A DNA stretch of 61,427 nt. Source: a virus (Duplodnaviria; Caudoviricetes). The DNA lies in IMG/VR virus record IMGVR_UViG_3300029179_000001, positions 1-61,427 of that record; one strand, 5' to 3'. This document shows, piece after piece, positions 43,983 through 58,870 of this stretch; position 1 is the stretch's first letter; each line of letters starts with the position of its first letter. The notes beneath the pieces were generated by a model. That model saw only the letters and a program-made list of their open reading frames with translations. It was not told the DNA's origin and did not search any database. The translations under genes were made by a program, and so were the position numbers.

Positions 43983-46310
43983 TCACATTAAGGAGCTAAA
44001 CCATGTGAGATCGGCAGGCTTCCGCCCCTCTTTTACAAGGTCTATCCAGCTGGTTTTGGCGAATTTCGCCGTGCTGTACAGGATGGTTGACCGGACACCA
44101 CGGGTATTCCACTGTGGATTTTGTGCCATTCCTACCTCACCATTTCTGGCAAACCACCCCCTGTTCAAGGCCAGCTTCCGGATGGTCAAATAGCTTTCGA
44201 GCCGGTCATTGTGCCGCCCATCATACATCTTGTTACGGATTAGGTCTTGAAGCTGTGAATCAATCAGGAACACTTCCTCATTTTTAGCCTCAGCATCCTC
44301 TTTGACCTTATCGATGACGCCTGCAACCATGAGAAGCCCCTTCGAAAGGTTCTCGTTGATCACTTGTTGCTTAAGGGAGGAGCTGGGGGGCATGTCGCCT
44401 TTATAGATAGGGGAGTGTCCTGTGTATATGCTCTTATCCTTGCCGGAAGCGGGGGATAGGAATTTCTTGAGCCATCCATAGACAATGCTGATCCCGTCCT
44501 CATCCTCCAGCCAGTTAAAGAAGCGCTCCCAGTACGCGGGCGGCTTCTTTGTATTGTTCAAGCTAGGGATAAACCAGCGGCGGTCATTCTCATCAAGCTT
44601 CAAGGCTTTTAGCGAGTTAGAGCAGGCGATGACGTGGACCCAGTTGTCTATCTCATATGCCTTTTGAAACTTTTCATTGATCGAGATAGTCCCCTCTGTG
44701 ATGACTGACTTGAGGTTATCATAAGCCTTGAGGTTGTGTCCGTGGTAAATTTCATTACAGATGATGAGGCGCTTGTGCGCTGCCCAGCCATTGAAATTCG
44801 GATTCACAAGGCTTTCCCCACTCACCACCGACGAATTGTTCATGCCCACGATTGGCCTCATGATCCGTTCGCCTAGCGTTGTTTTGCCGATACCTTGAGT
44901 CTCTGATATGAGCAGCATTGAATACTGGATACGGATTTCAGGGTGATGCGCCAGCGTCGCCATATAGCGTAGCGTTTCGATCCGGTCCTTTTCCTCTGGG
45001 ATGAGATACTCCATGTATTCAATGAATGTCGAAGCATCACCCTCCCTAGCCACAAGGCTAGTCGGGATGTGAGTGTTGATCCTTCTCCTATTATCTGATG
45101 TTGCGTAGATGCCTGGTTCACGTGATGGGTTGTAGTCTAGCTGAATAGCTTTCGAGGCATTGTCCCTTAGAACGATTGAACTGGTGTTCACACTGTTGGA
45201 GAAGGGGGCGACAACATTGTCAAATTCATCAGCACTATAGATCAGGTCATAGCGGTGCTTGAACACGAACAAGAGGGGCTTCACTGAATGTTCGATTGAT
45301 TCGAGGAAAATTGGTCTCAGGCGGATTTGCGCTGCGCCTTTTCCGCTTGGATTGGGCACGAGGTCTGTGGCCCATGTTGCTGGTTGTATGAGTTGCTTAA
45401 TCGAGGGGCCAATGTATTTCCCCTTCTTGTTGAAGAGGCGGGCACAATCCTTCCCCGGCTCCATAGGATCAGCAAGGTCAAATCCGTATTTCCAACGGTT
45501 GTCAAACTTCACAATGTAGAGCAGCCCGCCATAAGCCCTGCTCACATCAGAGTCAGCCCTCATTCCTGGCGGATCATTGTCGCATACATAGACAACCTCT
45601 GTTGGCTTCTCTTTCGCTACCTCGCGGTAGTCTGCGCGGTGTGCTGCTAGGGCTCCACCCACCTGTCCCCAGTGTTCATACTCCTTGAGCTCTTCATACC
45701 AAGGATGGACTGTGCGGATGGCCGCATATTCCTTTTCCTTTGATGTACATAGCTCTTCAACGAAGCGTGCTGTTTTAGCACCTTCGTGAATCATGATCTT
45801 GTTTGAGCGCTTGACCTTAGGCTTCCAAAGTGGAAGCTTATCGGGCGGCTCCATCTGTCTCCAACGGCCATCGTTATAATAGGTCCATGGGAAATAGTCC
45901 TTTGTCCCGTCCTTGTGGTTGCGGCGCTCCTGAACAAAGTCGATGAGCCCTGTTTGACGGTTCCAGAACACAAAGAGCATATCGAGGTTAGTTTGAGCAA
46001 CACTCATCAATGATCTTAGAAGGGCTTCTGTCGCTCCAATATGTTCAGGCCATTTTACATCCCGGATTGCGGCTGCAATTTCTTCCACTTCTTTCTTCGT
46101 TGGCGCGTAGTCCTTGTGAGTGCAATTGATGATGTGTTCTTCATCGATCCTGATGATGGCTACCTCTTTGTAGTAACCATTTCCCAATTGTTCACGCACC
46201 ATGTACTTGCGGTAGCTCATCATGGTCGCGCCCACACGGTCTATATAAGCCGCTAGGGCAGGGATCGATTTGTAGTTGAATGTCTCTGGTGCTCTCGGTT
46301 TGCGAGCCAT
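43983..46310 (-). CDS. Primase-helicase (TOPRIM plus SF3/DUF5906-like ATPase)
   Basis: IHEG and CDND (TOPRIM); QGIGKTT (Walker A), IICNE (Walker B), ACSN, DRRW; start 46310 after GAGGACCA. Confidence 0.88.
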   Translation of the reverse strand: MARKPRAPETFNYKSIPALAAYIDRVGATMMSYRKYMVREQLGNGYYKEVAIIRIDEEHIINCTHKDYAPTKKEVEEIAAAIRDVKWPEHIGATEALLRSLMSVAQTNLDMLFVFWNRQTGLIDFVQERRNHKDGTKDYFPWTYYNDGRWRQMEPPDKLPLWKPKVKRSNKIMIHEGAKTARFVEELCTSKEKEYAAIRTVHPWYEELKEYEHWGQVGGALAAHRADYREVAKEKPTEVVYVCDNDPPGMRADSDVSRAYGGLLYIVKFDNRWKYGFDLADPMEPGKDCARLFNKKGKYIGPSIKQLIQPATWATDLVPNPSGKGAAQIRLRPIFLESIEHSVKPLLFVFKHRYDLIYSADEFDNVVAPFSNSVNTSSIVLRDNASKAIQLDYNPSREPGIYATSDNRRRINTHIPTSLVAREGDASTFIEYMEYLIPEEKDRIETLRYMATLAHHPEIRIQYSMLLISETQGIGKTTLGERIMRPIVGMNNSSVVSGESLVNPNFNGWAAHKRLIICNEIYHGHNLKAYDNLKSVITEGTISINEKFQKAYEIDNWVHVIACSNSLKALKLDENDRRWFIPSLNNTKKPPAYWERFFNWLEDEDGISIVYGWLKKFLSPASGKDKSIYTGHSPIYKGDMPPSSSLKQQVINENLSKGLLMVAGVIDKVKEDAEAKNEEVFLIDSQLQDLIRNKMYDGRHNDRLESYLTIRKLALNRGWFARNGEVGMAQNPQWNTRGVRSTILYSTAKFAKTSWIDLVKEGRKPADLTWFSSLM

Positions 46311-46601
46311 GGATTGGTCCTCTTGGTTTTCTAGGGATGAATGATTCCCTGTCGCGCCGCTACTATTAGAACGAAACAATGATAGAAAAAAGAGGGGTTA
46401 ATTTATTTTCTGAAATCTTCAAAAATTGCTACTTCATTAGAAATCCTGAAAATACCGTAACGACATGGAGGGAATCAGTATCGATTGAAACGAATATTGA
46501 ATCACTTAAGCCCACAAATAAATCAAATAGACTTTCTTCAATGTTTTCGTGTAACCTCTTCCCGCTCCTAATTCCGGGAGCACAAAACAAGGGAATAGAC
46601 G

Positions 46602-47459
46602 ATGGCTAAGGTAGCGCCGAAACCCGTGGCAAAGGGGAAACCCGTGCCCGAAAAGACAAAAGGACCAACTCCCAATCTTCCAGCAGTCAAGAAAGCCGCT
46701 CCCAGCGGCATTATTGCGTATGAAGAGTTTGAAGGGGATCGTTCTGGGTTCGAGAATGTCACTGCACGTGATGTTTCCGTTCCACGCATCACGATCCTTC
46801 AAAAGCTTTCCCCACAGTTGGACAAGAAGAAACCCAACTATGTGGAAGATGCTCAGCTGGGTGATTTTTGCGACGTGAGCACTGGTGAAATTTTCCGGGA
46901 GCAGCTTCGCATCATTCCTGTTTTCTATGCGATGATTCATCTCGAATGGGCACCCCGCTCAACAGGCAAGGGCATTGTCAATAACTACGGGACAGACCGC
47001 TCAATCCTCGACAAGTGCACTCAGGATGAAAAGCGCAAGATGGTTCTGCCCAACGGCAACTATGTCGCTGAAACGGCAACCTATTTCGTCCTCAATCTGG
47101 ACGCCAATTACCGGCGTTCCTTTATTCCGTTGTCGTCGACTGGATTGCGTGCGAGCCGCAACTGGATGAATGCGCTGACGGGCGAGCGGGTGCCTAAGCC
47201 GGACGGGTCAACGTTCCAGCCGCCAATGTTCTATCGCTCTTGGATTGCGAAACCTGTTGAGGTTTCCAATAATGATGGTGATTGGTACACTTGGAAATTC
47301 GATCCATCTGATACCATCATTGAACTTGATCCGAGCAAGGAGCTATTGGCTGAGGCCCGTTCCTTCTATGAAGCCGCCTCCAGCGGCCTCATCAAGGGTG
47401 ATTTGTCCGGTCTTGAACAGGCTGGCGAGGATCGCAGCGACGGCGACGGCCGCATGTAA
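46602..47459 (+). CDS. Putative ssDNA-binding / annealing protein
   Basis: GFEN....D..VPR...LQ.LSPQ pattern; acidic C-terminus; first gene of the replication operon. Confidence 0.6.
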   Translation: MAKVAPKPVAKGKPVPEKTKGPTPNLPAVKKAAPSGIIAYEEFEGDRSGFENVTARDVSVPRITILQKLSPQLDKKKPNYVEDAQLGDFCDVSTGEIFREQLRIIPVFYAMIHLEWAPRSTGKGIVNNYGTDRSILDKCTQDEKRKMVLPNGNYVAETATYFVLNLDANYRRSFIPLSSTGLRASRNWMNALTGERVPKPDGSTFQPPMFYRSWIAKPVEVSNNDGDWYTWKFDPSDTIIELDPSKELLAEARSFYEAASSGLIKGDLSGLEQAGEDRSDGDGRM

Positions 47460-48124
47460 TGTCTAGGCCACTCCCGAAAGCCTCCCCGGCTCAAAAGCCG
47501 GGGAGGCCTTCTGTAAACGCTAGCAAGAGCAAGCGTGCACAGGATGATGAAGACCTTGAAAGCGTTCTTGGAAAGACAACCCCAAGCAATTCCCAGCTCA
47601 ACGAGATCAGTGTGGCTGTGGATTCAGCAGTTCACCTCATGAGGTCTATCGAGAACCTTGAAGAGGCTGTCGCGGGATACAAGAAGGAGCTGCGTGAGAT
47701 CATCGAGAACCGGATACCAAACATCATGGTGTCTGCCGGATCGAAGAATTTCGAAACAATCGAAGGCGTAAAAGTGGAGCTAAAGGACATTGTGTCGGCT
47801 ACGCTTCCGCCTGATGATGATGAAAACGAGGCCAGGCGCAAGGCAGCGATGGCTTGGCTTCGCAAGAATGGCGCTGATTCCTTGATCAAGGTAGCGATCA
47901 AGGCAGAGCTCAACAGCAAGGATAAGGCTGCACTCAAGGTCTTGCTTTCAGAAATGAAGAAGCTGAAGGTGGACTATCTTGCGAAGGAAAGTGTTAATCC
48001 AATCTCTCTTTCCGCACTCATGCGCAAGCGCATTGCTGATGCGCAGCCCATCCCAACTGACCTGATGACTATCTTTTCAGGCAAGCGGGCGAAGATCACC
48101 CTGCCAAACAAACAGGAGAAATGA
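47459..48124 (+). CDS. Conserved phage replication-region protein
   Basis: Coiled coil followed by A..WLR.NG...LIK. Confidence 0.6.
   Translation: MSRPLPKASPAQKPGRPSVNASKSKRAQDDEDLESVLGKTTPSNSQLNEISVAVDSAVHLMRSIENLEEAVAGYKKELREIIENRIPNIMVSAGSKNFETIEGVKVELKDIVSATLPPDDDENEARRKAAMAWLRKNGADSLIKVAIKAELNSKDKAALKVLLSEMKKLKVDYLAKESVNPISLSALMRKRIADAQPIPTDLMTIFSGKRAKITLPNKQEK
47480..47511 (+). terminator. Strong hairpin after the SSB-like gene
   Basis: GCCTCCCCGGCT-CAAA-AGCCGGGGAGGC, 12-bp stem. Confidence 0.45.
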
Positions 48125-48125
48125 A

Positions 48126-48419
48126 ATGTCTGAACGTGTTATCCGTGAGCAATTGATTGCCCTTGATGCCCTTATGGGCAGGGAGGGAGCTGACTCTATT
48201 ACAGGGTTCAAGGGCAAATTGGTTGCATACACAGTCCACATCACTGGCTGCGATCAGGTCTATCTCTTGCCTCAAGTCGGGAGTGATGGAAAGAAAGCCG
48301 AGGGTGCTTGGTTCGATTTCCCTCGCATCGATTGGAACATGGACAAGTCACCATTGACTGTTCCGAAAGGTGATAAGCCGGGAGCGAGTGAAGCAACAAC
48401 CAGCGGCAGGAGGGTCTAA
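48126..48419 (+). CDS. Conserved phage hypothetical protein
   Basis: D.ITGF.G...TGC.Q...WFD..R motif. Confidence 0.65.
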   Translation: MSERVIREQLIALDALMGREGADSITGFKGKLVAYTVHITGCDQVYLLPQVGSDGKKAEGAWFDFPRIDWNMDKSPLTVPKGDKPGASEATTSGRRV

Positions 48420-48646
48420 TGGATAAGGAGCCTATCCTTCAATTCTTTGCATGGAATCACCTTCCACTACCCCTCCGAGAAATCTCCATGCAATTCCAAG
48501 TTGTTGCGAATCAGCTTATCACTTCCCTTCCCCGTAACCCAGAACGCACTGTTGCGCTTCGAAAGCTTCTGGAGGCGAAGGATGCAGCAGTCCGTGCACG
48601 CCTCTACAAGGACCCAAATGCCCCAGAACACTCCAATTCCGCATAA
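48419..48646 (+). CDS. Small helical-hairpin protein, possibly Acb2/Tad1-like
   Basis: QFF...HLP..L...S..F...PE..VALRKLLEAKD..VRA. Confidence 0.5.
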   Translation: MDKEPILQFFAWNHLPLPLREISMQFQVVANQLITSLPRNPERTVALRKLLEAKDAAVRARLYKDPNAPEHSNSA

Positions 48647-48809
48647 CGCGGGATAGCGATGGCGAGCCGCTCGCTCGCTAGGTTTTGTAACACAGGACAC
48701 TGAAACGCAATAATATCGAAAGCCCCTAATGTAACTGGGGCCTCCAGCTGATAGGCCCCTCCCGCTTCCCCAAATCTATGCGGGAGGGGTTCTCGAAAAG
48801 GACCAACCA

Positions 48810-49064
48810 ATGAGAATAGCCCTTCTACATGTTGAACAACTGCTGGCCTACTACAAGCGGGGATCGAAACCCCGCTGCGAGGCTGAAATCTCTTATTCTG
48901 GAAAGATGTACCGGGATATGAGAAAACGCGATTACCGTTGCGAGCGCCAAGCCAAATACTGCATCAATGGAAATCACTATTGCTCAACTCACGCAGGTCA
49001 TATCGCACTCGAACACCTCATCAAGGTCTACAAGGAAGATAATCCCAATGAGCACGCTGGCTAA
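48810..49064 (+). CDS. Cys/His Zn-binding hypothetical protein
   Basis: RCEA, RC.R.A, YC..HA; AAAGGACCA RBS. Confidence 0.55.
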   Translation: MRIALLHVEQLLAYYKRGSKPRCEAEISYSGKMYRDMRKRDYRCERQAKYCINGNHYCSTHAGHIALEHLIKVYKEDNPNEHAG

Positions 49065-49311
49065 CCGTAACTCCTTGCGGTTCAAGGGGTTCAATGTTGG
49101 CGAGGCCAACATGATTGATGCGATCCTCTATGTTGGCGAGGCAATCAATCGTCTTGCGGATGCAGTTGAAAAGATGCCATCAGAAGGGTCCATCGAAGAA
49201 ACCCCCGCCAAGGGGTTTCTCGCAAAAGCGTTCGAGGAAACGGGCGCAGAGATTTTAGCTTCAACGCAATTTCATATTGCGGAGCTCATCAACAAGGAAG
49301 GGCAAAAATGA
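49048..49311 (+). CDS. Hypothetical protein
   Basis: RBS present; ATGA coupling to the next gene. Confidence 0.5.
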   Translation: MSTLANRNSLRFKGFNVGEANMIDAILYVGEAINRLADAVEKMPSEGSIEETPAKGFLAKAFEETGAEILASTQFHIAELINKEGQK

Positions 49312-50291
49312 AAGTTTCAATCATTGGTGCAGGGATGGCTGGCCTTCTAGCAGCCAACATGTTGAGCCGTTACAAGCCATGTGTTTTTGAGAAACAACCC
49401 ACCCTTCCAAACAATCACTCCGCAGTCCTTCGCTTCCGCTCGCCTATTGTTGGGGATGTCCTAGGCATTCCATTCAAGAAGGTAACAATGATCAAGACGG
49501 TTTTGCCTTGGACCAATCCTGTTGCGGATGCGCTTGCATACTCATTCAAGAACACAGGACAATATTCGAGTGATCGCAGCGTAGTGTCTTCCTCATTTGT
49601 GCGTGAAGACCGTTACATTGCACCTCAAAACCTAATATCCCAGATGTATCAAATGATTCCGGGAGAACAGTTTCGTTTTGGAGAAAGTTATTTCGATCCC
49701 CAGGAAGATTTGATTGGCCCAAGCAAAGATGCCAAGAGGCAAGGCATCGCGATCATTTCAACGATGCCAATGCCGATGCTAATGAACGCTCTCAACTATA
49801 AGGGCCAAGGTTCTTCTCCATTTATTTTCCCGTCTCAAAGAGGAGTAAATGTAAAGGTGAAGCTGTATGCAACAGATGCCTATGTGAGTTTGTACATCAC
49901 TAATCCTGAATATCCAATGAGCCGCATATCGATTACGGGAAATGAAATGATCATCGAGTTTCCCGGAATGACAAAGGAACAAGCAACCCCAGCATTGATA
50001 CAGAAGATGATCGATCAATCATTCTTGTTCCTAGGAATGAGTTATGAGGCTTCAGCTAAGGATGGAAGCTTTCAAATTTATGATCAAATGTATCACAAGA
50101 TACTCCCCATCAGCGATGTTGTGCGGAAGGACTTCATGAGTTGGGCAACACGTGAGTTCAATATCTATAGTCTTGGACGTTTTGCTACGTGGCGCCCTTC
50201 GTTGTTGCTGGATGATCTTGTTCAAGATGTCCGGCTCATCGAACGTTGGTTCAATGGTAGTAGCTTGTATGAGATTAACAGGAGGAAGTGA
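49308..50291 (+). CDS. FAD-dependent oxidoreductase (UDP-galactopyranose mutase-like fold)
   Basis: IIGAGMAGL...VFEK Rossmann motif; C-terminal YSLGRFATWRP. Confidence 0.8.
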   Translation: MKVSIIGAGMAGLLAANMLSRYKPCVFEKQPTLPNNHSAVLRFRSPIVGDVLGIPFKKVTMIKTVLPWTNPVADALAYSFKNTGQYSSDRSVVSSSFVREDRYIAPQNLISQMYQMIPGEQFRFGESYFDPQEDLIGPSKDAKRQGIAIISTMPMPMLMNALNYKGQGSSPFIFPSQRGVNVKVKLYATDAYVSLYITNPEYPMSRISITGNEMIIEFPGMTKEQATPALIQKMIDQSFLFLGMSYEASAKDGSFQIYDQMYHKILPISDVVRKDFMSWATREFNIYSLGRFATWRPSLLLDDLVQDVRLIERWFNGSSLYEINRRK

Positions 50292-50292
50292 A

Positions 50293-50757
50293 ATGAGCGA
50301 TGAACCTTGCCGTCAATTATCGAACCTGGCAACTGTGAATGGAGAATGCATTCGCTGTGGTGCTTATGCTGGAGAAGCTTGCCGGGACAATTTGCCCAAG
50401 CCACCAAAGTCCGTTCGTTCTTCCCTCAACAAACCTTCAGGGTTCACTCGCTTTTCCCTCGACAAGACCCCACGCCACCGTCAGCCACCCAATAAGGCAG
50501 ATGGTAAGCTGTTGTTGTCTTCTCCCCCGCGTGTAACGAGGGATGAAGCCCTTGAGCTGATGGTTCATCATCTTCAACTCGCAGCAATGTATTATGAAGC
50601 CACCAGCCATGATGAGTCAGCTGTTGCTATAGAAGTGAACCGGATTATGTCGGAGGATGTTATTGGCTTCGATCCGCCCGGAAAGCTTGCGGCTCAAGCT
50701 TGGCTTCGCTCAATGAACGATACATATGGGAGTTACAAGAATGTTGAAGAAGATTGA
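50293..50757 (+). CDS. Hypothetical protein with N-terminal Cys finger
   Basis: CIRCGA..GEAC; GGAGG RBS. Confidence 0.55.
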   Translation: MSDEPCRQLSNLATVNGECIRCGAYAGEACRDNLPKPPKSVRSSLNKPSGFTRFSLDKTPRHRQPPNKADGKLLLSSPPRVTRDEALELMVHHLQLAAMYYEATSHDESAVAIEVNRIMSEDVIGFDPPGKLAAQAWLRSMNDTYGSYKNVEED

Positions 50758-50971
50758 AGCTGTCCATCAATCCGTTGGTATCCGTATCCGCATGATCCGC
50801 GAAGCTCTAGGATTGAATCAGGGTGATCTATCTAAGCGGGTTGGTCTTGATAGAACATCCATCACAAACATCGAATCAGGAAGACAGCGGCTCCTGCTTC
50901 ACAACATTGAAGCTTTCGCTTTGGCGCTTGGAACGACACCTAAGAACTTGATGAAAGGAATATGGTGGTAA
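50741..50971 (+). CDS. XRE-family HTH transcriptional regulator
   Basis: RIRMIRE..GL.Q..L...VG..R.SI.NIE.G. Confidence 0.85.
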   Translation: MLKKIEAVHQSVGIRIRMIREALGLNQGDLSKRVGLDRTSITNIESGRQRLLLHNIEAFALALGTTPKNLMKGIWW

Positions 50972-50972
50972 G

Positions 50973-51155
50973 ATGAAGCTGACTTGGATGGAATGTAATT
51001 GTGGTTCTCCTATTTGCGACCGCAAGTGGCCATTGGAAATTGGAACCTATTATCAAGGCTCTGGTTTCAGCAATCTTGAACGGGAGGTCATGGACAAGGC
51101 TTTCTCTTCAATGACTAAAGAGCAATTCCATAAGATATTGGACAAAACAATATGA
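50973..51155 (+). CDS. Hypothetical protein
   Basis: CNCG.P.C motif; coupled to the next gene. Confidence 0.5.
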   Translation: MKLTWMECNCGSPICDRKWPLEIGTYYQGSGFSNLEREVMDKAFSSMTKEQFHKILDKTI

Positions 51156-51484
51156 TGAAGGATCGAGTGGACAGGCAAATCAAAGCCGCGCAACAATTCT
51201 CTCTTTTGTTTGGGGAGGAGAAGCTGAACAATGATCGCATTCAGGTGATGCGCTTCATTAAGGAAGCCCTGCGCCTTGTTCATTCTATGAATATCTCACG
51301 GGCGAAACTGAATGAGATGTTCGAAACCGTCTATCATCAAAAGCGATTTAGTACAAAGCAACAAGTCGGCAAAGTTGGGCTATCGCTCCTAACGCTCGGA
51401 CATTCTCTAGGCCTGAATGTAGATGACCTAGAGGAGTTTGAGCTAGGGAAGATGATTGAAAAGGGGAGAGACGCTAGTGATTGA
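51152..51484 (+). CDS. MazG-like all-alpha protein, degenerate paralog
   Basis: Aligns by eye to 51477-51851 (RFIKEA/RFIEEA), but acidic residues are lost. Confidence 0.55.
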   Translation: MMKDRVDRQIKAAQQFSLLFGEEKLNNDRIQVMRFIKEALRLVHSMNISRAKLNEMFETVYHQKRFSTKQQVGKVGLSLLTLGHSLGLNVDDLEEFELGKMIEKGRDASD

Positions 51485-51851
51485 ACCTAAATCAAGAATG
51501 ATTGACCGTCAGCAGCGTCAGCGTGCTGTTGCTGAATGGGTTGAGGAAACCTTCGGAAAGGATCAAGCAAAAAGCCAGCGCATTCGTTGCTTGCGCTTTA
51601 TTGAGGAAGCCTTTGAACTGGTTCAATCCCTCAATCTATCGAAGCACGAATGCATCAAGGTTGCTAATGCAGTCTACAAGCGCAAGAGCGGAGCGCCAAT
51701 TCAAGAGCTAGGGGGAGTTGGGATAACTCTTTTGGCACTTGCTGATTCGATTGGGCACGATGCAGATTGTGCTGAGTCAATGGAACTCAACCGCGTCCTA
51801 TCTAAGGACAAGGCCCACTTCCAAAAACGCAACGCAGAGAAAATCAAGTAA
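51477..51851 (+). CDS. MazG-like nucleotide pyrophosphohydrolase
   Basis: W...TFG, RFIEEAFEL, QELGGV. Confidence 0.65.
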   Translation: MIEPKSRMIDRQQRQRAVAEWVEETFGKDQAKSQRIRCLRFIEEAFELVQSLNLSKHECIKVANAVYKRKSGAPIQELGGVGITLLALADSIGHDADCAESMELNRVLSKDKAHFQKRNAEKIK

Positions 51852-51863
51852 CAGGAGCTCATC

Positions 51864-52166
51864 ATGCTAGAGTTTTCGGCCAAGTCCATCCTCATCATCC
51901 CCGAACAACAAGTCAAGGAAATGTTCGAGCAAACGATGAAAGGCGCAACACAACACGCTGGCGATGCTGCGAGCGTTGCCAAGCTTTTAACTCGGATAAA
52001 CACTCAGCAAGTTCCCTTCATGTTGCTAGGGGTTCCAGGGCAATCCTACATTGTCGCAAACCTTCGCATGGCAGCTGGCCTTCCTCCTGGACAATTGATT
52101 CAAATGATGAATCAATCTCAAGGTGTAAAGCCACCTTTCAACCCAATCATCAATGGGAGCAACTAA
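51864..52166 (+). CDS. Hypothetical protein
   Basis: AGGAG RBS. Confidence 0.55.
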   Translation: MLEFSAKSILIIPEQQVKEMFEQTMKGATQHAGDAASVAKLLTRINTQQVPFMLLGVPGQSYIVANLRMAAGLPPGQLIQMMNQSQGVKPPFNPIINGSN

Positions 52167-52920
52167 CATGAGAGTGTCTCTTATTGATTACACTGGCGCC
52201 GGTCACCCGGATAAGTTGTATGCTGCGAAGCTTCTTTGCTACACGAAGGACACTCGCCTAGAGCAAGGTTCAGATAGCTTCGAAAAGACTATGCTTATGA
52301 GCGAGGCTGAAACGCTGGAGAAACTCAAATACATCGCCAACACGATCCGTTCATCATGGGAGTTTGTTGATTACACATTCCAGATTGTTGGGGTTACACG
52401 TGCCTTTACCCATCAATTCGTCCGTACAAGGACAGGCAGCTATGCACAACAATCACAGCGCAGCGTTGACATGTCCGGCTTTACAGATGTTAAGCCTGTC
52501 TCTGTTTTGAATAACAGCGAGGCTTCTGCTTGCTGGGACAATGCTATGAAATTCATTGACCTGGCATATAGGGACTTAAGAAAGAACGGGATTGAGGCTG
52601 AAGATGCACGTGGCCTTCTCCCAACGAATATTAGCACCAACATCATTGCTAAGTTCAACTTACGGACCCTCGCAGATTTAGCAGGAAAGCGCGACAACCT
52701 ACGGGCTCAAGGCGAGTACACTTCAGTGTACAAGAAGATGGCTGAGTGTGTAATGCACGTTATGCCTTGGACAAGGGATTTTCTTTACCCAGAACGGACG
52801 GCAACCCCTATGCTAGATACCATTCTCAAGGAAGCGCTCGGAAGCGCAACGCCATTCAGCAAGCCAAGAATCAATGATGCACTCAAGGAGTTAGACCGTC
52901 TCAAGGGAGCTTGGGGTTGA
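52153..52920 (+). CDS. thyX: Flavin-dependent thymidylate synthase-like protein (variant)
   Basis: RAFTHQFVRTR(x7)S, EDARGLLP, NLRTL, R....AQGE. Confidence 0.85.
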   Translation: MGATNMRVSLIDYTGAGHPDKLYAAKLLCYTKDTRLEQGSDSFEKTMLMSEAETLEKLKYIANTIRSSWEFVDYTFQIVGVTRAFTHQFVRTRTGSYAQQSQRSVDMSGFTDVKPVSVLNNSEASACWDNAMKFIDLAYRDLRKNGIEAEDARGLLPTNISTNIIAKFNLRTLADLAGKRDNLRAQGEYTSVYKKMAECVMHVMPWTRDFLYPERTATPMLDTILKEALGSATPFSKPRINDALKELDRLKGAWG

Positions 52921-53044
52921 TGGACCTGTCCTTTCACTTTCCGTTCGACTATCCATTCAGTGAGTTTCTAGCAACTCTCTTTTGGGTAGGATTGTTCTGT
53001 TACATTTTTGTGTACTTTTTTTCAGCATGGATAAAGGGGAAAGA

Positions 53045-53269
53045 ATGAGCCAGACATTCTCAAAACGCCAATCGTTCTTTAAGCAGGCACTCAAGGACAA
53101 TGTTTCTCAATTTGCCTTGCGGCATTCTGCTTCACTTGACAAGATGTCTGGGAGTGCTTGCGAGAATTGCGGCCGCAAATTCTATAACCCGGATGACCCT
53201 CTATCAAAGCCTTTCGGGCGTTTGTGTACTGCTTGTTACAAATTTGCAACAATGGAGAAGCTTATATGA
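53045..53269 (+). CDS. Zn-finger hypothetical protein
   Basis: CENC...CTAC. Confidence 0.55.
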   Translation: MSQTFSKRQSFFKQALKDNVSQFALRHSASLDKMSGSACENCGRKFYNPDDPLSKPFGRLCTACYKFATMEKLI

Positions 53270-53865
53270 TCCTTGTTGCTCCTTTCTTTCCTTCCCGGAA
53301 AAAGTGCCTTGCTTACTGTGGGGATGATCTTTGCGATTGTGCCCATTTCCCTCGCTACAAACCCTTTCAATGGAGACAAATGATGACCGCCCCTCATACA
53401 ACCTACAAAGTCCTCAACGACATCGCCAAGGAACGCGAATGCCAGATTGATGTTGAAGGCTTCGATCCCAATCAAGATGACAATCGTACTGATAGAAGCC
53501 TTGCAATTGCAGCGGCGGCTTATATCGATTGCGCTAGCTGGTCCACGGAGAAGCGTGAAAGGCGGAAAGAGTTCAATCAACCTCCATCATGGTGGCCATT
53601 CGATAAGAAGTGGTGGAAGACAACTGACCGGCGGCGCGATTTAATTAAGGGGATTGCGCTTGCTGTTGCTGAGGTGGAACGGTTGGATAGGATCGTGAGC
53701 AAGGGCGGAGAAATCGATGAAGAAAGTCAATCCAAGACGGCGCAAGGCAATCTTCAAAAAGAAGCAAATGGCGAAGGGGAAACCCAGCAAGATGGACTTT
53801 CGCAACGCGAAGCTGATAAAGGCGGAGAAGCTGATAAAGGCGGAGAAACTGATAAGCATCATTGA
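53266..53865 (+). CDS. Conserved phage protein (Ead/Ea22-associated domain; alternative start 53380)
   Basis: ER..QI..EG.....DD, WPF...WWK, RRDLIK..AL..AE.ERLDR. Confidence 0.65.
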   Translation: MILVAPFFPSRKKCLAYCGDDLCDCAHFPRYKPFQWRQMMTAPHTTYKVLNDIAKERECQIDVEGFDPNQDDNRTDRSLAIAAAAYIDCASWSTEKRERRKEFNQPPSWWPFDKKWWKTTDRRRDLIKGIALAVAEVERLDRIVSKGGEIDEESQSKTAQGNLQKEANGEGETQQDGLSQREADKGGEADKGGETDKHH

Positions 53866-53932
53866 CCTAAAAGCCAACAAGCCTCATCCGCCACACTCAT
53901 ACATCTACACAATGGAGACAGAAGATGACTAA
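53717..53932 (+). CDS. Basic hypothetical protein
   Basis: GGAG RBS; overlaps both neighbours. Confidence 0.4.
   Translation: MKKVNPRRRKAIFKKKQMAKGKPSKMDFRNAKLIKAEKLIKAEKLISIIDLKANKPHPPHSYIYTMETEDD
53809..53855. repeat. 18-bp tandem repeat, ~2.6 copies
   Basis: GAAGCTGATAAAGGCGGA twice, then GAAACTGATAA. Confidence 0.85.
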
Positions 53933-54623
53933 CATTCAGACAGTTCTCGTTACGGGCGGCGCGGGAACACTCGGCAGCTACATTGCCAATCGTCTTGCCG
54001 ACACTTACGGATATAATGTTGTGACGCTCGATGTGCCTGGAACGGATGCTGACATCCAAGTTAATTTGAAAGACAAAGGAAAATGGATTGATGAACTTGG
54101 CAAAGAACAAATTGACGCCGTCGTTCACGTTGCCGGCCTAAACAAGATCGCTCCTCACAAGGATGTTGATGGGGACTTGCTTTCTGAGTTGATGTATGTG
54201 AACTGTTACTCTCAATTCTATCTCAACCGTTTCCTGATGGGCAATAGTCTTTCTCCATTACAACTTGCCCTTCATATTGTCAGTGATGCGGCTCTTCAAC
54301 CGTTCACACACTCCCTAGCCTACAATCTATCGAAGGCAGCACAGCTCATGCTTGTGCGCCAGATGGCTCATGAGATCAAGCCCCAAGAATGTGTTATCTT
54401 TTCCGTATCGCCGGGGAAGATTGCGAACACAGGAATCAGCAATTACATTGACAAGGCGTTCCCTCCCCTTCGTGGCATGACGTTTAAGGAGGGCCGCGCC
54501 TATCAATTGTCGCGCCTTCGAACGGGAGAAATGGAAGTGGGATTGACTGCTGACTTTATCTGCGGGCTATTTCACAGCGCATCTGTTCACAATCATGGTC
54601 ACAACTATGTAATAGGGGGCTAA
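53925..54623 (+). CDS. Short-chain dehydrogenase/reductase
   Basis: TGGAGTLG, VH.AG, catalytic Ser (IVS), YNLSK, VSPG. Confidence 0.88.
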   Translation: MTNIQTVLVTGGAGTLGSYIANRLADTYGYNVVTLDVPGTDADIQVNLKDKGKWIDELGKEQIDAVVHVAGLNKIAPHKDVDGDLLSELMYVNCYSQFYLNRFLMGNSLSPLQLALHIVSDAALQPFTHSLAYNLSKAAQLMLVRQMAHEIKPQECVIFSVSPGKIANTGISNYIDKAFPPLRGMTFKEGRAYQLSRLRTGEMEVGLTADFICGLFHSASVHNHGHNYVIGG

Positions 54624-54624
54624 C

Positions 54625-55110
54625 ATGGAACAAGTATCTCTTCACGATAAGATCGAGCAAATTGCCTTTGGATGCTGGAACTTGTATGAGTGGGAATATC
54701 AAGCACAAAAGTGTTCTGTTACAGACAGAGTTGTCTTTGATGGACGTTTCCGCCGCAATAGCTCTGAACCTTGGATCGAGATCAAGGATAAGGTTGGTTA
54801 TCTAGCGTTCGACTACCTGACTGGGCTGGAGCGGGAATATCTTCACTATCCTAATCGAAAGGACACCTTTCACGAGCTCATCCCATTCAACTTTTCCGAG
54901 TTGTACCTGTCTCATTTTGGACAGCATTGTGATGACATCCAGGGTTATATTGAACAGCATGGGGAAACCAATCTCATCATGGATGTCAGAACGAAATCTC
55001 ATACCAATGCATACTTGATCGATAAGAAACGGACCTATCGCTATGTTATCTTCGACAAGCGGGCTGAGTCAGGGTACTTTTGGAAACTCATACAGAGGTT
55101 CGAATCATGA
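54625..55110 (+). CDS. Hypothetical protein
   Basis: Fills the gap between neighbours; ATGA coupling downstream. Confidence 0.55.
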   Translation: MEQVSLHDKIEQIAFGCWNLYEWEYQAQKCSVTDRVVFDGRFRRNSSEPWIEIKDKVGYLAFDYLTGLEREYLHYPNRKDTFHELIPFNFSELYLSHFGQHCDDIQGYIEQHGETNLIMDVRTKSHTNAYLIDKKRTYRYVIFDKRAESGYFWKLIQRFES

Positions 55111-55670
55111 CAGAGACAGTCGGCGAAAGCCTATCAAGGATCGCGGACCAATTTATTGCTAAGTCCAGCGAATACGGCGACAGCTACAAGCAGATGGGGC
55201 CAGTGCTAAAGTCTCTCTTTCCAAACGGCATAGTCCTCAATACAGAAAGGGAGTTCAACCGCTTCTCTCACTTCGTTCAACTGGTCTACAAACTCAATCG
55301 CTATGCTTTCAATTTTGAACAGGGAGGGCACTGCGACAGCATGAATGATCTTGCCATTGGGTCTCAACTCATGAACGAGATTGATTCACATTCAGACAAT
55401 GTTGAACGGGTTTTGAATCGTCTTAAGAATGATCAGCCTCTAACCCTCAACAAGCCTGCCTTTCTGGGTCACGATCTATACAAAACAGGCGATAAGGATT
55501 GCCCAACCAGCATTCTCGACAGCAATGGCGAGGTTGTCTTAGGGCTTTGCCGTAAGTGCGGGAAGGGGGAGAGCGAACTAGAAGCCCCTTGTCCAGTTAC
55601 TGCTATTCCTCCCGCAAAGCCAACAATGCCCCCTGTTTGGGCAGGAGAAGATGAGGATGGCGATCCATGA
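55107..55670 (+). CDS. Nmad1/DUF1599-like protein with C-terminal Cys domain
   Basis: K..EYGDSY, FP.G..L, FNRF, K..RY, GH.DS..D; paralog of 57003-57323. Confidence 0.6.
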   Translation: MTETVGESLSRIADQFIAKSSEYGDSYKQMGPVLKSLFPNGIVLNTEREFNRFSHFVQLVYKLNRYAFNFEQGGHCDSMNDLAIGSQLMNEIDSHSDNVERVLNRLKNDQPLTLNKPAFLGHDLYKTGDKDCPTSILDSNGEVVLGLCRKCGKGESELEAPCPVTAIPPAKPTMPPVWAGEDEDGDP

Positions 55671-55866
55671 ATTGCGGCCACAATCCAAACTTGCTATTGC
55701 TCTTGTCGCTCAATGGAACAAGCCGGGAGTTGCTGACGCTTACCGCAAGTGCCGTTGGTCCTTTGTGGATTGGCCAAATAGTGGAGAAGTTTGGATGTGG
55801 TCTCTTAGTCTTATCCGTTCCCGCTCCTGGAAACGCTCCCCTTACCGCACACCTAGGAATGTGTAA
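55657..55866 (+). CDS. Hypothetical protein
   Basis: RBS present; ends at a CTAG-rich island. Confidence 0.35.
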   Translation: MAIHELRPQSKLAIALVAQWNKPGVADAYRKCRWSFVDWPNSGEVWMWSLSLIRSRSWKRSPYRTPRNV

Positions 55867-55996
55867 TCCCGGAAATCTCCCCGCCCTAGGTCTAGAGGGA
55901 GAAAGCCCTATAGGGAGTGATCCTAGGTGTGTTTTCGAGCCTATCCGGGAGGGATAGGGTAAGAAGGAAGGGAAGCGGAGCGCTATACGAAGCGAA

Positions 55997-56248
55997 GTGA
56001 TACAAGAAAATGCTGAAACGATGCTAGAAAACAGGAACGATGGACTAAGCTTCTTTCGCGGCATCATCAATGCTCTCATTCTTGCCTGCCCATTCTACCT
56101 CGCTTTCTTGTTCTGGGTGTTTGGAGTAGTATCCTATTGGGCTTGGGGCTTTGCTTTGATCATCATTGTTTATTGGGGACACTTGATGGCCAAAGGGATT
56201 AAGATTTGGCGGCAGAAGGAAAGGGAACAAAATGATCGGCACAGATGA
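55997..56248 (+). CDS. Two-TM membrane protein
   Basis: Two hydrophobic helices. Confidence 0.55.
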   Translation: MIQENAETMLENRNDGLSFFRGIINALILACPFYLAFLFWVFGVVSYWAWGFALIIIVYWGHLMAKGIKIWRQKEREQNDRHR

Positions 56249-56555
56249 AAATGGCTTTAAGCAAAAGCCAACAGTTGAAGGATCGCAAACACAAGATGAT
56301 CCCTTGTTGCTTTGCTATTGCGATTTGGCTTGTGAATACTTCGTGAGAAAAAAATCTGACATGTGCGAGGTTTGTGATTGTACGCATCCTTTCACACCTC
56401 AAAATGCTCAGCAAGCCTTAACCTGGCTTCACGAGGAACGGGTCAAGGTTACTCATCAGCTGAATGAGCAAAGGAATATCATTACAAAGCTCAGAAGGGC
56501 TTTCAATGATTTGTTCAAAGTTCTTTCAGACAACAAAGGAGCATTCAATGAATAG
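56232..56555 (+). CDS. Hypothetical Cys-rich / coiled-coil protein
   Basis: C.C...C and C..C.C motifs; RBS. Confidence 0.5.
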   Translation: MIGTDENGFKQKPTVEGSQTQDDPLLLCYCDLACEYFVRKKSDMCEVCDCTHPFTPQNAQQALTWLHEERVKVTHQLNEQRNIITKLRRAFNDLFKVLSDNKGAFNE

Positions 56556-57000
56556 GCGTATTGTTCTGTGCGACATTGACCACGTTATCTCTGATGCGTT
56601 CTGGCGGGACAATATGTTGTCTGGGGCCTCTCCTGACTATGATTCGTATCACTATGCGAGCCGGGAGGATAATCCAAATCCTGCAATTGTCTCCATGCTT
56701 CAAACTCTTTGCTTTGCCGGTAGTTATCACATTGTGGGCCTGACTGCACGGCCTGAGAAATGGCGAAAGCTAACTATGGACTGGATGATTAAGCACTATG
56801 TCCCAATGGATGAGCTTTTTATGCGTCCTATGGATATGCTGTTTGAGCCAACGCCAAAGCTCAAAGCACACCTCATCAAGATCAATTACCCTGAAGGTTT
56901 CAAGAACATTTCGCTGGTCATTGATGATCGCGAGGATGTTTGTGCTGAGCTAAGGGGGATGAATTTGAACGTAATGCAATACACAATGAGGAGGGCTTAA
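56548..57000 (+). CDS. HAD-family phosphatase (PNKP phosphatase-like)
   Basis: CDIDH (DxD), LTARPE, conserved Lys, IDDR. Confidence 0.85.
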   Translation: MNRRIVLCDIDHVISDAFWRDNMLSGASPDYDSYHYASREDNPNPAIVSMLQTLCFAGSYHIVGLTARPEKWRKLTMDWMIKHYVPMDELFMRPMDMLFEPTPKLKAHLIKINYPEGFKNISLVIDDREDVCAELRGMNLNVMQYTMRRA

Positions 57001-57002
57001 CA

Positions 57003-57323
57003 ATGTCTGAACAATCTCACCCTGTCGCTGAAAGCCTTAAGAAGCTGGGAGCGTTGTTTGATGAGCGGGCTGCAGTGTATGGGGACAACTACAAATTCTT
57101 CGGCAAGGTTATGCTGGGAATGTTTCCTCATGGCCTTGAGCTTAAGAGCGAGGATGATTTCAATCGCTTCTCCATGTTCCTCATAAGTGTGGTCAAGATG
57201 ACGCGCTACGGACAGATGTTCAAGAAGGGCGGGCATGATGACTCTCTTGATGACAGTTCTGTGTATCTACAAATGCTAGCCAAGATGGATCAAGAAATCC
57301 GCGCAGGAGGAAAGAATGTCTAA
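57003..57323 (+). CDS. Nmad1/DUF1599-like protein
   Basis: ER..VYGDNY, FP.G..L, DFNRF, K.TRY, GHDDSL.D..VY. Confidence 0.6.
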   Translation: MSEQSHPVAESLKKLGALFDERAAVYGDNYKFFGKVMLGMFPHGLELKSEDDFNRFSMFLISVVKMTRYGQMFKKGGHDDSLDDSSVYLQMLAKMDQEIRAGGKNV

Positions 57324-57858
57324 TTTCTCTCTTAACCTCCCCCTCTCCCTTCAAGAGAACTATGAAGCAGCAATGTTGAGAGACATTGGAAATTGGAATT
57401 TTCTTTCCGGTCCAGTCATCCTCAACATTGGAGCAGGCAACAAGCTCATCAAAGGAACAATCCCCCTTTCGCTTGATCAAGGGTGGTCAGCCCCTTTGCT
57501 ATCCGATTTTGCAAATGAAAGTGTTGATGGGATCATCACATATCATTTCCTCGAATTTCTGACACGCGAACAATTCATGCTTCAGCTTCGTGAGTTTCAG
57601 CGCGTTCTTAGGACAGAAGGGCTTGTTAACATTGCTGTCCCCTACTTTGCCAGTGAGCAAGCCTTTCACGACATCAACAATCAGTTGTACTTCACTGAGA
57701 AAACCTTTGTTCATGTGCTTGAAAAGAAATACTACAGCATGAACCTTGTAAATGGGCTAGAGGAGGAAAAGTGGAGGCTCAGGATCAATAACTCTTGCAT
57801 CATGGGGCATTCACACATGAACCTTATGCTTATGATTCAACTGGAGAAAACCCCATGA
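57316..57858 (+). CDS. Class I SAM-dependent methyltransferase (small-molecule type)
   Basis: LNIGAG, SVD.I...HFLE, RVL..EG...I.VP. Confidence 0.75.
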   Translation: MSNFSLNLPLSLQENYEAAMLRDIGNWNFLSGPVILNIGAGNKLIKGTIPLSLDQGWSAPLLSDFANESVDGIITYHFLEFLTREQFMLQLREFQRVLRTEGLVNIAVPYFASEQAFHDINNQLYFTEKTFVHVLEKKYYSMNLVNGLEEEKWRLRINNSCIMGHSHMNLMLMIQLEKTP

Positions 57859-58445
57859 AAAGGAAAATCAAGAAAGTGACAGTCAGTAAGCCTGTCATCA
57901 AGAAGCCAAAACTGCGTTGGTTTGCGTTCGATACAGAAACCACTGGCCTAGTCGAAAACCGGAAGCTGAGTCTAGACCGGCTTCCTGAGATTGTTGAGTT
58001 TTATGGAGTTGAATTCGATCCTGTCAGTGGAGAAATGTTCCGGGAGATCAATCAACTCATCAAGCCACGTAAGTCTATGAATGCAGAACAAATCAGCCAT
58101 CACATGATTACCAATGAGATGTTGGCAAATGAGCCTGTCTTTGCTTTTGTTGCTCCAAGAATCAAGGAGTTTATTGAAGGACAATCCCTCGTGTTCGCCC
58201 ATAATCTATCATTCGACATGGACATGGTCGACATCGAGTTTGAGCGTCTGGAGCAAAAGATAGCTTGGCCAAGACGCTTGTGTACAGTTGAGCAAACGAT
58301 TCATTTGCGTGGTCATCGCCTCTCTTTAACGAAGCTTCACGAACATCTATTCAAAACTCCATTCAGCGGAGCGCACAGGGCAAAGGTCGATGTGGCAGCC
58401 CTTGTTCGTTGTATTTGCGAACTACACAAGTTGGGAGAGCTATGA
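57855..58445 (+). CDS. dnaQ: DEDDh 3'-5' exonuclease (Pol III epsilon-like)
   Basis: FDTETTG, AHN..FD, HRA..D. Confidence 0.9.
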   Translation: MKRKIKKVTVSKPVIKKPKLRWFAFDTETTGLVENRKLSLDRLPEIVEFYGVEFDPVSGEMFREINQLIKPRKSMNAEQISHHMITNEMLANEPVFAFVAPRIKEFIEGQSLVFAHNLSFDMDMVDIEFERLEQKIAWPRRLCTVEQTIHLRGHRLSLTKLHEHLFKTPFSGAHRAKVDVAALVRCICELHKLGEL

Positions 58446-58870
58446 TGGAAAACATTGATCTCAATAAACTGCGCCGGGAACTCATAAAGATACGGGAATG
58501 GGCTCAAAACTACATCGATAAGCTACAGCCCCCTCCCGCAACAGAAGCAGGCTCCCTCCCTATCAATCCCCCTCCTCCAGCAGCTGCGCAAGTTATTGCA
58601 GGCGCTTCTCCGCGTGCTGCGGATGCTGCGTCAGCAAAAGAGGTTGATAAGAAGCTTCCGATGTTGGTGTGGAAGAAAACATTGAAGGGCGGATACACTC
58701 CAGAGTTTTGGCCTCATGGAGAGGTTGTGATTGGAGGACAAAGCAACAGCTACGTCAAGGCATACAATGTGTCTAATCTTCACTATGGTCTTTCAATTTC
58801 AATGTTGACAATTCACTATCCATTGCCTGATGAGTTTCATCAAAAACCTATTGGGGAGAAAGCATCTTGA
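58442..58870 (+). CDS. Hypothetical protein
   Basis: Coupled at both ends; Pro/Ala linker. Confidence 0.55.
   Translation: MMENIDLNKLRRELIKIREWAQNYIDKLQPPPATEAGSLPINPPPPAAAQVIAGASPRAADAASAKEVDKKLPMLVWKKTLKGGYTPEFWPHGEVVIGGQSNSYVKAYNVSNLHYGLSISMLTIHYPLPDEFHQKPIGEKAS

Follow-up and report, generated by a model that had tools for sequence, protein, structure and literature searches.

Introduction

Flavin-dependent thymidylate synthase (ThyX, also FDTS) is a textbook enzyme that also serves as a drug target, and the motif RHRx7S together with His53 and Tyr91 is treated as defining for it. In the half of the canonical reaction that loads the carbon, His53 stacks folate/NADPH, and Ser88 and Tyr91 serve as acids on the flavin carbinolamine/iminium. 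Enzymes of the UDP-galactopyranose mutase (UGM) type act on sugars through the same flavin-N5 iminium chemistry, and in UGM the iminium is formed between N5 of the reduced flavin and galactose. Here, we describe a viral gene pair in which a ThyX-like protein without the defining histidines and Tyr91 is accompanied by a flavoprotein with a UGM/amine-oxidase fold. The pair was found in the IMG/VR virus record IMGVR_UViG_3300029179_000001, and "the window" means this whole stretch of DNA (61,427 bases, estimated completeness 68%). The ThyX-like gene lies at 52168-52920 and the flavoprotein gene, called the partner below, at 49308-50291, both on the plus strand. The terminase of the window is nearest to those of two Synechococcus phages (43% identity), Pam3-phage-like genes are present, and no GenBank phage matched positions 46000-61427 by megablast. 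For the canonical enzyme, the part of Bou-Nader et al. (2021; PMC8316439) drawn on here describes a strict conservation of Tyr91 and Ser88 and a critical role of both in consuming the flavin carbinolamine. It reports that S88A, R90A and Y91A greatly slow this step (Y91A by more than 100-fold), that free formaldehyde loads the ThyX flavin without folate, and that R174 polarises and deprotonates N3 of uracil (PMC8316439).

Results

The longest open reading frame (ORF) at this place runs from 52153 to 52920 on the plus strand. The real start is probably ATG 52168 and not 52153, because GGGAG stands 8 nucleotides (nt) upstream of it, the preceding ORF stops at 52166 and the homologues have the 250 amino acids that this start gives; the closest ones begin with MRVSL or MKVSL at this second ATG. 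The product is a full-length Thy1/ThyX-fold protein. It covers positions 2-191 of the 191 in Pfam Thy1 (PF02511; E 5e-34, 118 bits against a cut-off of 24.8), scores 98.4 bits with the thyX equivalog TIGR02170 of NCBIfam (cut-off 87.9), and matches PHROG 85, "thymidylate synthase". An AlphaFold2 (AF2) model built from a 115-sequence alignment had a mean pLDDT of 95.9, and Foldseek returned M. tuberculosis and T. maritima ThyX as its best matches (E ~1e-10, TM ~0.65). Membership of the ThyX family by domain and fold is thus clear, and the score above the equivalog cut-off, the complete profile and the fold all favour an ordinary enzyme. Such an enzyme would convert deoxyuridine monophosphate (dUMP) with methylenetetrahydrofolate and NADPH to deoxythymidine monophosphate (dTMP); the His and Tyr residues described below as lost would be compensated in the pocket, and the upstream flavoprotein would be a mere neighbouring core gene. 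We hold this explanation to be a serious competitor, though on the doubtful side, and return to it where the evidence touches it.

The active site was examined by HMMER alignment to T. maritima ThyX (chain 3n0b, whose chain number minus 12 gives the native numbering used here). The sequence-only reading of this DNA had proposed that RHRx7S reads RTRx7S, that the upstream segment TIRSSWEF lacks the folate-stacking His, and that the Ser and the Arg residues binding dUMP and flavin adenine dinucleotide (FAD) remain. The alignment bears this out, with both hallmark histidines absent. First, TIRSSWEF (52342-52365, plus strand) stands in place of GHxSxxEH. Ile here takes the position of H53 and Phe that of H59, and W-E-F falls onto F57-E58-H59. 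Second, RTRTGSYAQQSQRS (52423-52464, plus strand; RTRTGSYAQQS at 52423-52455) replaces RHRx7SxRY. Here R-T-R falls onto R78-H79-R80, which puts Thr at H79, and S-Q-R-S onto S88-G89-R90-Y91, which leaves S88 and R90 in place and puts Ser at Tyr91. The changes of H59 to Phe and Tyr91 to Ser are further hallmark losses beyond those noticed earlier. Canonical ThyX rows placed on the same profile (P0244, P0266, P0268, P0269, Clostridium phage 39-O and nine IMG/VR loci) have His at the column of the window Ile, and the rows shown also have His at that of the window Phe. We take His53 of T. maritima ThyX to be the residue stacking folate/NADPH, behind which stand PDB titles; the Foldseek matches included an entry titled "FDTS (H53A mutant) with FAD, dUMP and Folate". 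The role of His79 in the canonical enzyme is likewise presumed.

In contrast to these losses, the nucleotide-binding residues are retained. The dUMP-binding R78, R80, R90, R147 and R174 (the last aligned with the Arg of GKR) and also Q75 and E58 all have equivalents, each in at least 107 of the 115 aligned sequences. E65, Q83, R86, R88, R98, R148, N164, R166 and R175 of the 250-residue protein, which vary little or not at all, correspond to T. maritima E58, Q75, R78, R80, R90, R147, N163, R165 and R174, respectively. The retained Arg residues again favour an ordinary enzyme. They also bear on the earlier suggestion that the enzyme might use another donor or act on another pyrimidine. The pyrimidine part of it did not stand, given near-invariant equivalents of the dUMP-holding R78, R80, R90, R147, R174 and Q75, and the part concerning a changed donor gained indirect support. 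Accordingly rated as very improbable is a protein that takes another pyrimidine nucleotide (dCMP, UMP or CMP) or has lost catalysis and persists as a structural or regulatory relic. The Tyr91 hydroxyl, which contacts the sugar 3'-OH in the canonical enzyme, is gone, as such a protein might have it. Substrate changes are also known in the unrelated ThyA family, as described in the part of PMC13326640 drawn on here. However, the R174 equivalent is Arg in 112/115 sequences and the R90 equivalent in 107/115, and near-invariance of nine active-site residues at sequence identities of 30-70% would not be expected of a dead enzyme.

The gene had first appeared as an isolated oddity, and instead it is one member of a clade of thousands. 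A word-indexed protein search gave 3373 proteins at E<=1e-5 among 3855 candidates, and RTR was present in all of the best 120 of these 3373. An exhaustive search of 50%-identity representatives gave 3103 proteins at E<=0.001 and 830 at E<=1e-10. Column counts were taken from the 115-sequence alignment in the numbering of the 250-residue window protein. I60 (equivalent to H53) was Ile in 86 sequences, Leu in 13, Val in 8 and His in 4; F66 (H59) was Phe in 105, His in 5 and Met in 4; and T87 (H79) was Thr in 80, His in 19, Asn in 6 and Ser in 6. S96 (S88) was Ser in 67, Ala in 26 and Thr in 21, so that Ala or Thr occupies the Ser88 column in 47/115 sequences, and S99 (Y91) was Val in 52, Thr in 17, Ile in 14, Ala in 10 and Tyr in 6. 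The full canonical quartet H,H,H,Y occurred in only two of the 115 rows. Judged from these comparisons, the non-canonical residue pattern characterises a mainly viral and very large clade of thousands of proteins. The replacement motif T-I-x-S-S-W-E-F is itself conserved (T in 98, I in 86, S in 95, S in 89, W in 93, E in 113 and F in 105 of 115), which argues that the active site was remodelled under selection and did not decay.

A FastTree tree of 131 sequences gave the same picture, as far as a quick method, a sample biased to matches of the query and a midpoint root allow. All 14 canonical rows lay beyond one single branch (support 89), and one clade of 111 rows (support 99) united the window protein with those of Pbunavirus, Xanthomonas and Salmonella phages. 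The His79 column changed about six times between His and Thr/Ser/Asn within the non-canonical side. These changes favour an ordinary thymidylate synthase in that this residue appears dispensable. In contrast, H53, H59 and Y91 were lost together on one branch and a conserved new motif stands in their place, which is difficult for that explanation, as is the strongly deleterious effect of Y91A and S88A in the canonical enzyme (PMC8316439, in the part drawn on here). GenBank carriers of the non-canonical type include Pbunavirus T35, 14-1 and F8, Xanthomonas phage XcP1, Salmonella phage PCSE1, Wifcevirus coliphages, Serratia MyoSmar-like phages, Rhizobium jumbo phage TM30 and Vibrio phage VA-RY-3.

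Two side observations concern members of this family. The ThyX-like proteins of Pbunavirus (L002:4013-4930), XcP1 (L003:4007-4765) and PCSE1 (L004:4004-4807) carry a Cys-rich C-terminal stretch (C-x4-C-AFPR-x-G-...-C) that the window protein lacks, and from its pattern it is a possible metal site. In addition, one complete record of 62,982 bases with direct terminal repeats has a second, far more divergent Thy1-like gene (G005:C1:6285-6860; locus L092:3262-4017, minus strand). The motif of this second gene is RHW...SQRW, His is absent from its H53/H59 columns, and the distance to the RTR-type gene is 11 kb.

The partner gene (49308-50291, plus strand) encodes 327 amino acids with a FAD/NAD Rossmann domain and a UGM/amine-oxidase fold, as assigned from an AF2 model and Foldseek. 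Its PHROG, phrog_4828, is labelled "unknown function", and among the 120 listed of its 2860 database homologues none has a functional name. The N-terminus carries a GxGxxG dinucleotide-binding motif. Foldseek of the model (pLDDT 85) returned UDP-galactopyranose mutases first and then renalase, L-amino-acid oxidase and protoporphyrinogen oxidase (E 8e-11 to 5e-9); the ESM Atlas gave the same fold picture (TM 0.75-0.78), with nearest relatives that are almost all viral. No GLF or Amino_oxidase match was found in the partner with Pfam, where NAD_binding_8 alone appeared, below its cut-off (E 4e-4). The GLF sequence signature of UGM is thus missing, and the likeness is one of fold only. The family has its own set of invariant Arg/Lys/His residues, and the window protein is 29-32% identical to its counterparts in T35, XcP1 and PCSE1. 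No description of this flavoprotein was found in the literature searched.

Co-occurrence of the two genes was examined by searching whole IMG/VR loci of three sets with a profile hidden Markov model of the partner, the upstream flank being counted as adequate if at least 1500 nt lay 5' of the ThyX gene. Among 80 window-like loci, the partner was present in 76 and absent from one with adequate (L016) and three with short upstream sequence. Among 80 P0192-like loci, some of which have RHR, it was present in 75, and all five lacking it had short upstream sequence. All nine canonical P0266-like loci (H,H,H) had adequate upstream sequence and none had the partner. Where the flank sufficed, the partner was therefore present in 151/152 non-canonical versus 0/9 canonical loci (Fisher's exact test on 151/1 vs 0/9, p = 6e-14, which is not an independent-sample probability, the loci being related). 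It was upstream and on the same strand in 151/151 loci having both genes, and from its end to the ThyX frame there were at most 100 nt in 82 of them, 101-1000 nt in 58 and more in 11. Five P0192-like loci with enough flank keep RHR and have lost the other three residues, and all five have the partner, which indicates that the partner tracks the loss of the H53/H59/Y91 set and not that of His79.

The same division was seen among GenBank phages. By tblastn, the partner matched 102 GenBank phage records, none of them a Gordonia, Mycobacterium, Microbacterium, Bacillus, Streptomyces, Corynebacterium or Clostridium phage, groups from which the ThyX query gave 190 records. The gene pair spans unrelated genome types, namely 40-kb podovirus-size records, 66-kb myoviruses and a 207-kb jumbo phage (TM30, with the partner some 2.4 kb 5' of its ThyX-like gene). 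This distribution, 151/152 versus 0/9 across unrelated genome types, counts against an ordinary thymidylate synthase with an incidental neighbour. A complex prediction for the ThyX-like protein and the partner scored 0.00, was made without controls, and nothing is drawn from it.

We then considered the thymidylate synthase complement of these phages. No ThyA-family gene (PF00303) was found in the window or in 24 related records (among them 14 IMG/VR records at least 90% complete and 6 GenBank genomes), and a single Thy1 gene was present in 23/24. The non-canonical ThyX is thus their sole gene of a thymidylate synthase family, a point in favour of ordinary dTMP synthesis.

Modified DNA has been reported for two carriers of the pair. 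In the sections of a 2025 END-nuclease preprint (PMC12191111) drawn on here, F8 DNA is not cut by five enzymes with TG sites and is cut by five without TG, and the virion DNA of F8 and 14-1 holds novel nucleosides of 362 and 390 U. These are described there as sugar-type thymidine derivatives that replace about one quarter of T in TG context, and Pbunavirus is said to lack the genes previously implicated in hypermodification (PMC12191111); two later Pbunavirus papers cite it and add nothing further. We confirmed the pair in both phages (ThyX-like/partner, ORF59/ORF65 in 14-1 and gp059/gp065 in F8), the ThyX-like proteins being 94% and the partners 97% identical. Between these two phages with different adducts, the most divergent module genes are ORF66/gp066 (L086:3796-4680 vs L182:20279-21172; 162 of 294 amino acids aligned) and the HAD-fusion ORF57/gp057 (79% identical; L086:8114-9130 vs L182:15772-16836). 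Wifcevirus phages Bas98-101 carry the pair too, and restriction resistance is described for this genus without explanation, as far as the source covers it. The mass of 362.3 U (C14H22N2O9) fits 5-hydroxymethyldeoxyuridine (5-hmdU) plus tetritol minus water, or deoxyuridine (dU) with a 1-deoxypentitol at C5, and 390.3 U (C15H22N2O10) fits 5-hmdU plus pentose minus water. Both adducts are most simply derived from 5-hmdU as a shared precursor. According to the part of PMC5889632 drawn on here, 5-hmdU comes in all known cases from a ThyA-type enzyme, which these phages lack. The known pathway of 5-HMUDK type, whose enzymes are a ThyA-like dUMP hydroxymethyltransferase, a 5-hmdU DNA kinase and an aG/PT-PPlase, is not recognisable, there being neither a homologue of M6 gp51, gp54 or gp55 nor a ThyA-family dU hydroxymethyltransferase. 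With phmmer at E<=1, no homologue of M6 gp51-gp56 or gp59 was found among the ORFs of the window and loci L002-L004. The literature searched tied no ThyX-family enzyme to phage hypermodification.

These masses bear on a direct sugar-aldehyde alkylase, in which the flavin N5 would form an iminium with an open-chain aldose, pass it to dUMP C5 and, after reduction, give 5-(1-deoxyalditol-1-yl)-dUMP. We regard this as improbable. A C5H11O4 group at C5 of dU does give C14H22N2O9 (362.3 U), the mass of the F8 nucleoside, the partner has the fold of a flavin-sugar-iminium enzyme, and a short-chain dehydrogenase/reductase (SDR) and a HAD phosphatase belong to the module. The ThyX flavin also accepts a free aldehyde, formaldehyde (PMC8316439, as drawn on here). 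However, an O-linked tetritol on 5-hmdU gives the same mass, the adducts of F8 and 14-1 differ in spite of the near-identical proteins just mentioned, and TG specificity favours a step on DNA.

The pair stands in a replication module. The order helicase, partner, ThyX-like gene, HAD-phosphatase fusion, DEDDh exonuclease and DnaE is common to the window, T35, 14-1, F8, XcP1 and PCSE1, and VA-RY-3 has partner, ThyX-like gene, exonuclease and DnaE as in the window; this location among replication genes again suits an ordinary thymidylate synthase. The module genes of the window described next are all on the plus strand. An accessory member is the SDR at 53925-54623 (Pfam adh_short, E 6e-15), which is 34% identical to XcP1_047 downstream of the XcP1 ThyX and has a homologue in 34/83 related loci. 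A HAD phosphatase domain of PNKP type lies at 56464-57000 (PF25109, E 4e-10), with a homologue about 1 kb downstream of ThyX in 64/83 loci. In 14-1, XcP1 and PCSE1, the HAD domain is the N-terminal part of the gene downstream of ThyX, which adjoins ThyX in XcP1 and is separated from it by one small ORF in 14-1 and PCSE1. A 196-residue protein at 55080-55670 (phrog_4889, E 2.7e-9; BLASTP to XcP1_048 and its T35 homologue) has matches in 71/83 loci and no Pfam or PDB match. The C-terminal part of the HAD-fusion protein downstream of ThyX in other phages has its homologues in this protein and in 57003-57323. Two replication genes form the end of the conserved module: the DEDDh exonuclease is at 57795-58445 (Pfam RNase_T, E 8e-17; 77/83 loci), and a DnaE-type Pol III alpha subunit runs from 58867 to the window end (61425; DNA_pol3_alpha, E 3e-63; 67/83 loci).

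Several other genes were noted. A 213-residue protein without a Pfam or PDB match (53224-53865, plus strand) has a Lys/Glu/Gly-rich repeat at its end, and its middle part resembles the C-terminal ends of nine different unknown-function PHROGs (best E 2.4e-28). Two small overlapping paralogous ORFs 5' of the ThyX-like gene (51152-51484 and 51456-51851, plus strand) match phrog_8593 (E 2e-9 and 8.5e-29) and have no homologue in the 83 related loci; a MazG-like identity is not claimed for them, PDB 5ie9 at E 0.68 being the single hint. Directly after an SNF2 helicase gene, 3375-4487 (plus strand) encodes a 370-residue FMN-dependent alpha-hydroxy-acid dehydrogenase/oxidase (PF01070, E 2.4e-101), which is unusual in a phage. 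This enzyme was considered as a supplier of aldehyde (glyoxylate) and rejected as a part of the conserved system, because it is absent in 24/24 related records; for the same reason, the gene is probably an auxiliary metabolic gene of the window virus. VA-RY-3 has a sulfotransferase-like protein near its ThyX-like gene (L091:7336-8091; PF13469, E 6e-7), and TM30 has a gene annotated "phosphoheptose isomerase" (L090:8721-9443), for which Pfam gave a weak HAD-like match only.

Discussion

We propose that the ThyX-like protein is a partner-linked, donor-remodelled flavin-relay transferase acting on dUMP C5, whose product plausibly feeds thymidine hypermodification, and we give this reading a probability of about 0.45. 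From the retained residues, the enzyme would still bind FAD and dUMP and form the carbon bond at dUMP C5 through a flavin-N5 adduct. From the lost ones, the half that loads the carbon and re-reduces the flavin would be remodelled, and from co-inheritance this half would work with the flavoprotein at 49308-50291. The enzyme would yield either dTMP, by an altered route, or a 5-substituted dUMP, for instance 5-hydroxymethyl-dUMP. We hold the second product to be slightly more likely; it could supply both thymine and a sugar hypermodification of thymidine of the Pbunavirus type. A changed handling of the one-carbon unit or aldehyde gains support because the His53 position and the Tyr91/Ser88 pair are replaced and the replacing motif is conserved. 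It gains further support because a partner of UGM fold co-occurs and two genera carrying the pair have modified DNA (Pbunavirus) or restriction resistance (Wifcevirus).

Several points weigh against this proposal. The TIGR02170 equivalog is passed, the nucleotide-binding Arg residues are all kept and the gene is the sole one of a thymidylate synthase family, and a plain dTMP synthase fits these facts equally. The roles of His53 and His79 are presumed, with PDB titles behind them. A stretch of 1.9 kb that contains about seven small ORFs separates the two genes in the window, and their linkage may reflect synteny of the replication module and not a shared reaction, because the helicase, exonuclease and DnaE are conserved in order as well. 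The M6 genes gp51-gp56 and gp59 had no homologue in the window or L002-L004 (phmmer, E<=1). The data on modified DNA come from Pbunavirus and not from the window virus. As described in the part of PMC12191111 drawn on here, about three quarters of Pbunavirus T is canonical, which suits an ordinary thymidylate synthase too, and the modification is TG-specific. Such specificity implies a step at the level of DNA, beyond a mononucleotide enzyme alone.

A further step would be that the pair provides the missing entry enzymes of a new, widespread and ThyA-unrelated flavin-dependent route to hypermodified thymidine, by making 5-hydroxymethyl-dUMP or loading a non-folate aldehyde onto dUMP C5. We put this forward tentatively, as distinctly less probable than a donor-remodelled transferase as such. 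If the route exists, it would explain the sugar-type adducts of Pbunavirus and the restriction resistance of Wifcevirus and, by extension, would predict modified DNA in thousands of uncultured phages including the cyanophage-like virus of the window. If the protein is a plain thymidylate synthase, the essential residues of ThyX would be redefined and the enzyme would gain a new partner. Under either outcome, thousands of viral proteins are annotated "thymidylate synthase" without the defining residues and with a co-inherited flavoprotein instead. Few phages are used more in Pseudomonas phage therapy than those of Pbunavirus, and the gene pair is a concrete candidate for their thymine hypermodification pathway. 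What is plausibly new here is the obligate genomic partner of a ThyX-like gene, previously undescribed, and a plausible link of the pair to hypermodification.

Compared with known systems, the pair has several distinguishing features. First, canonical ThyX (T. maritima TM0449, M. tuberculosis ThyX) has the same fold, full profile and Arg/Gln/Glu/Asn set for dUMP/FAD. The window protein differs from it in having RTR for RHR, Ile and Phe for the first and last His of GH..EH, and Ser for the Tyr of SxRY (Val, Thr, Ile or Ala in relatives). It also has a C-terminal extension of about 45 residues, its clade is variable at Ser88, and its partner gene is absent from 9/9 canonical loci. Second, the actinophage "ThyX-like" proteins (Gordonia phage OtterstedtS21 gp83, L087; Mycobacterium phage Butterscotch gp67, L088) are non-canonical too, with RQR, no His at H53/H59 and Phe at Y91. 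Their genes adjoin a DnaE-type polymerase, and that of Butterscotch is also near a FabG/L-xylulose-reductase-like SDR, which echoes the window module. Unlike the window protein, they have 366-399 amino acids, form a separate long branch and have no partner within 5 kb. Third, in the ThyA-family dUMP/dCMP hydroxymethyltransferases and 5-hydroxy-dCMP synthases, a small number of active-site changes has re-tuned a thymidylate synthase scaffold, which then provides the first intermediate of a DNA hypermodification (PMC5889632 and PMC13326640, in the parts drawn on here). This is an analogy only, as the fold of these enzymes is unrelated and no ThyA gene occurs in the window or its 24 relatives. 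Finally, the partner shares the GxGxxG FAD Rossmann motif and the two-domain fold with UGM, amine oxidase and protoporphyrinogen oxidase, and at 300-330 amino acids its family is shorter than those proteins (367-510).

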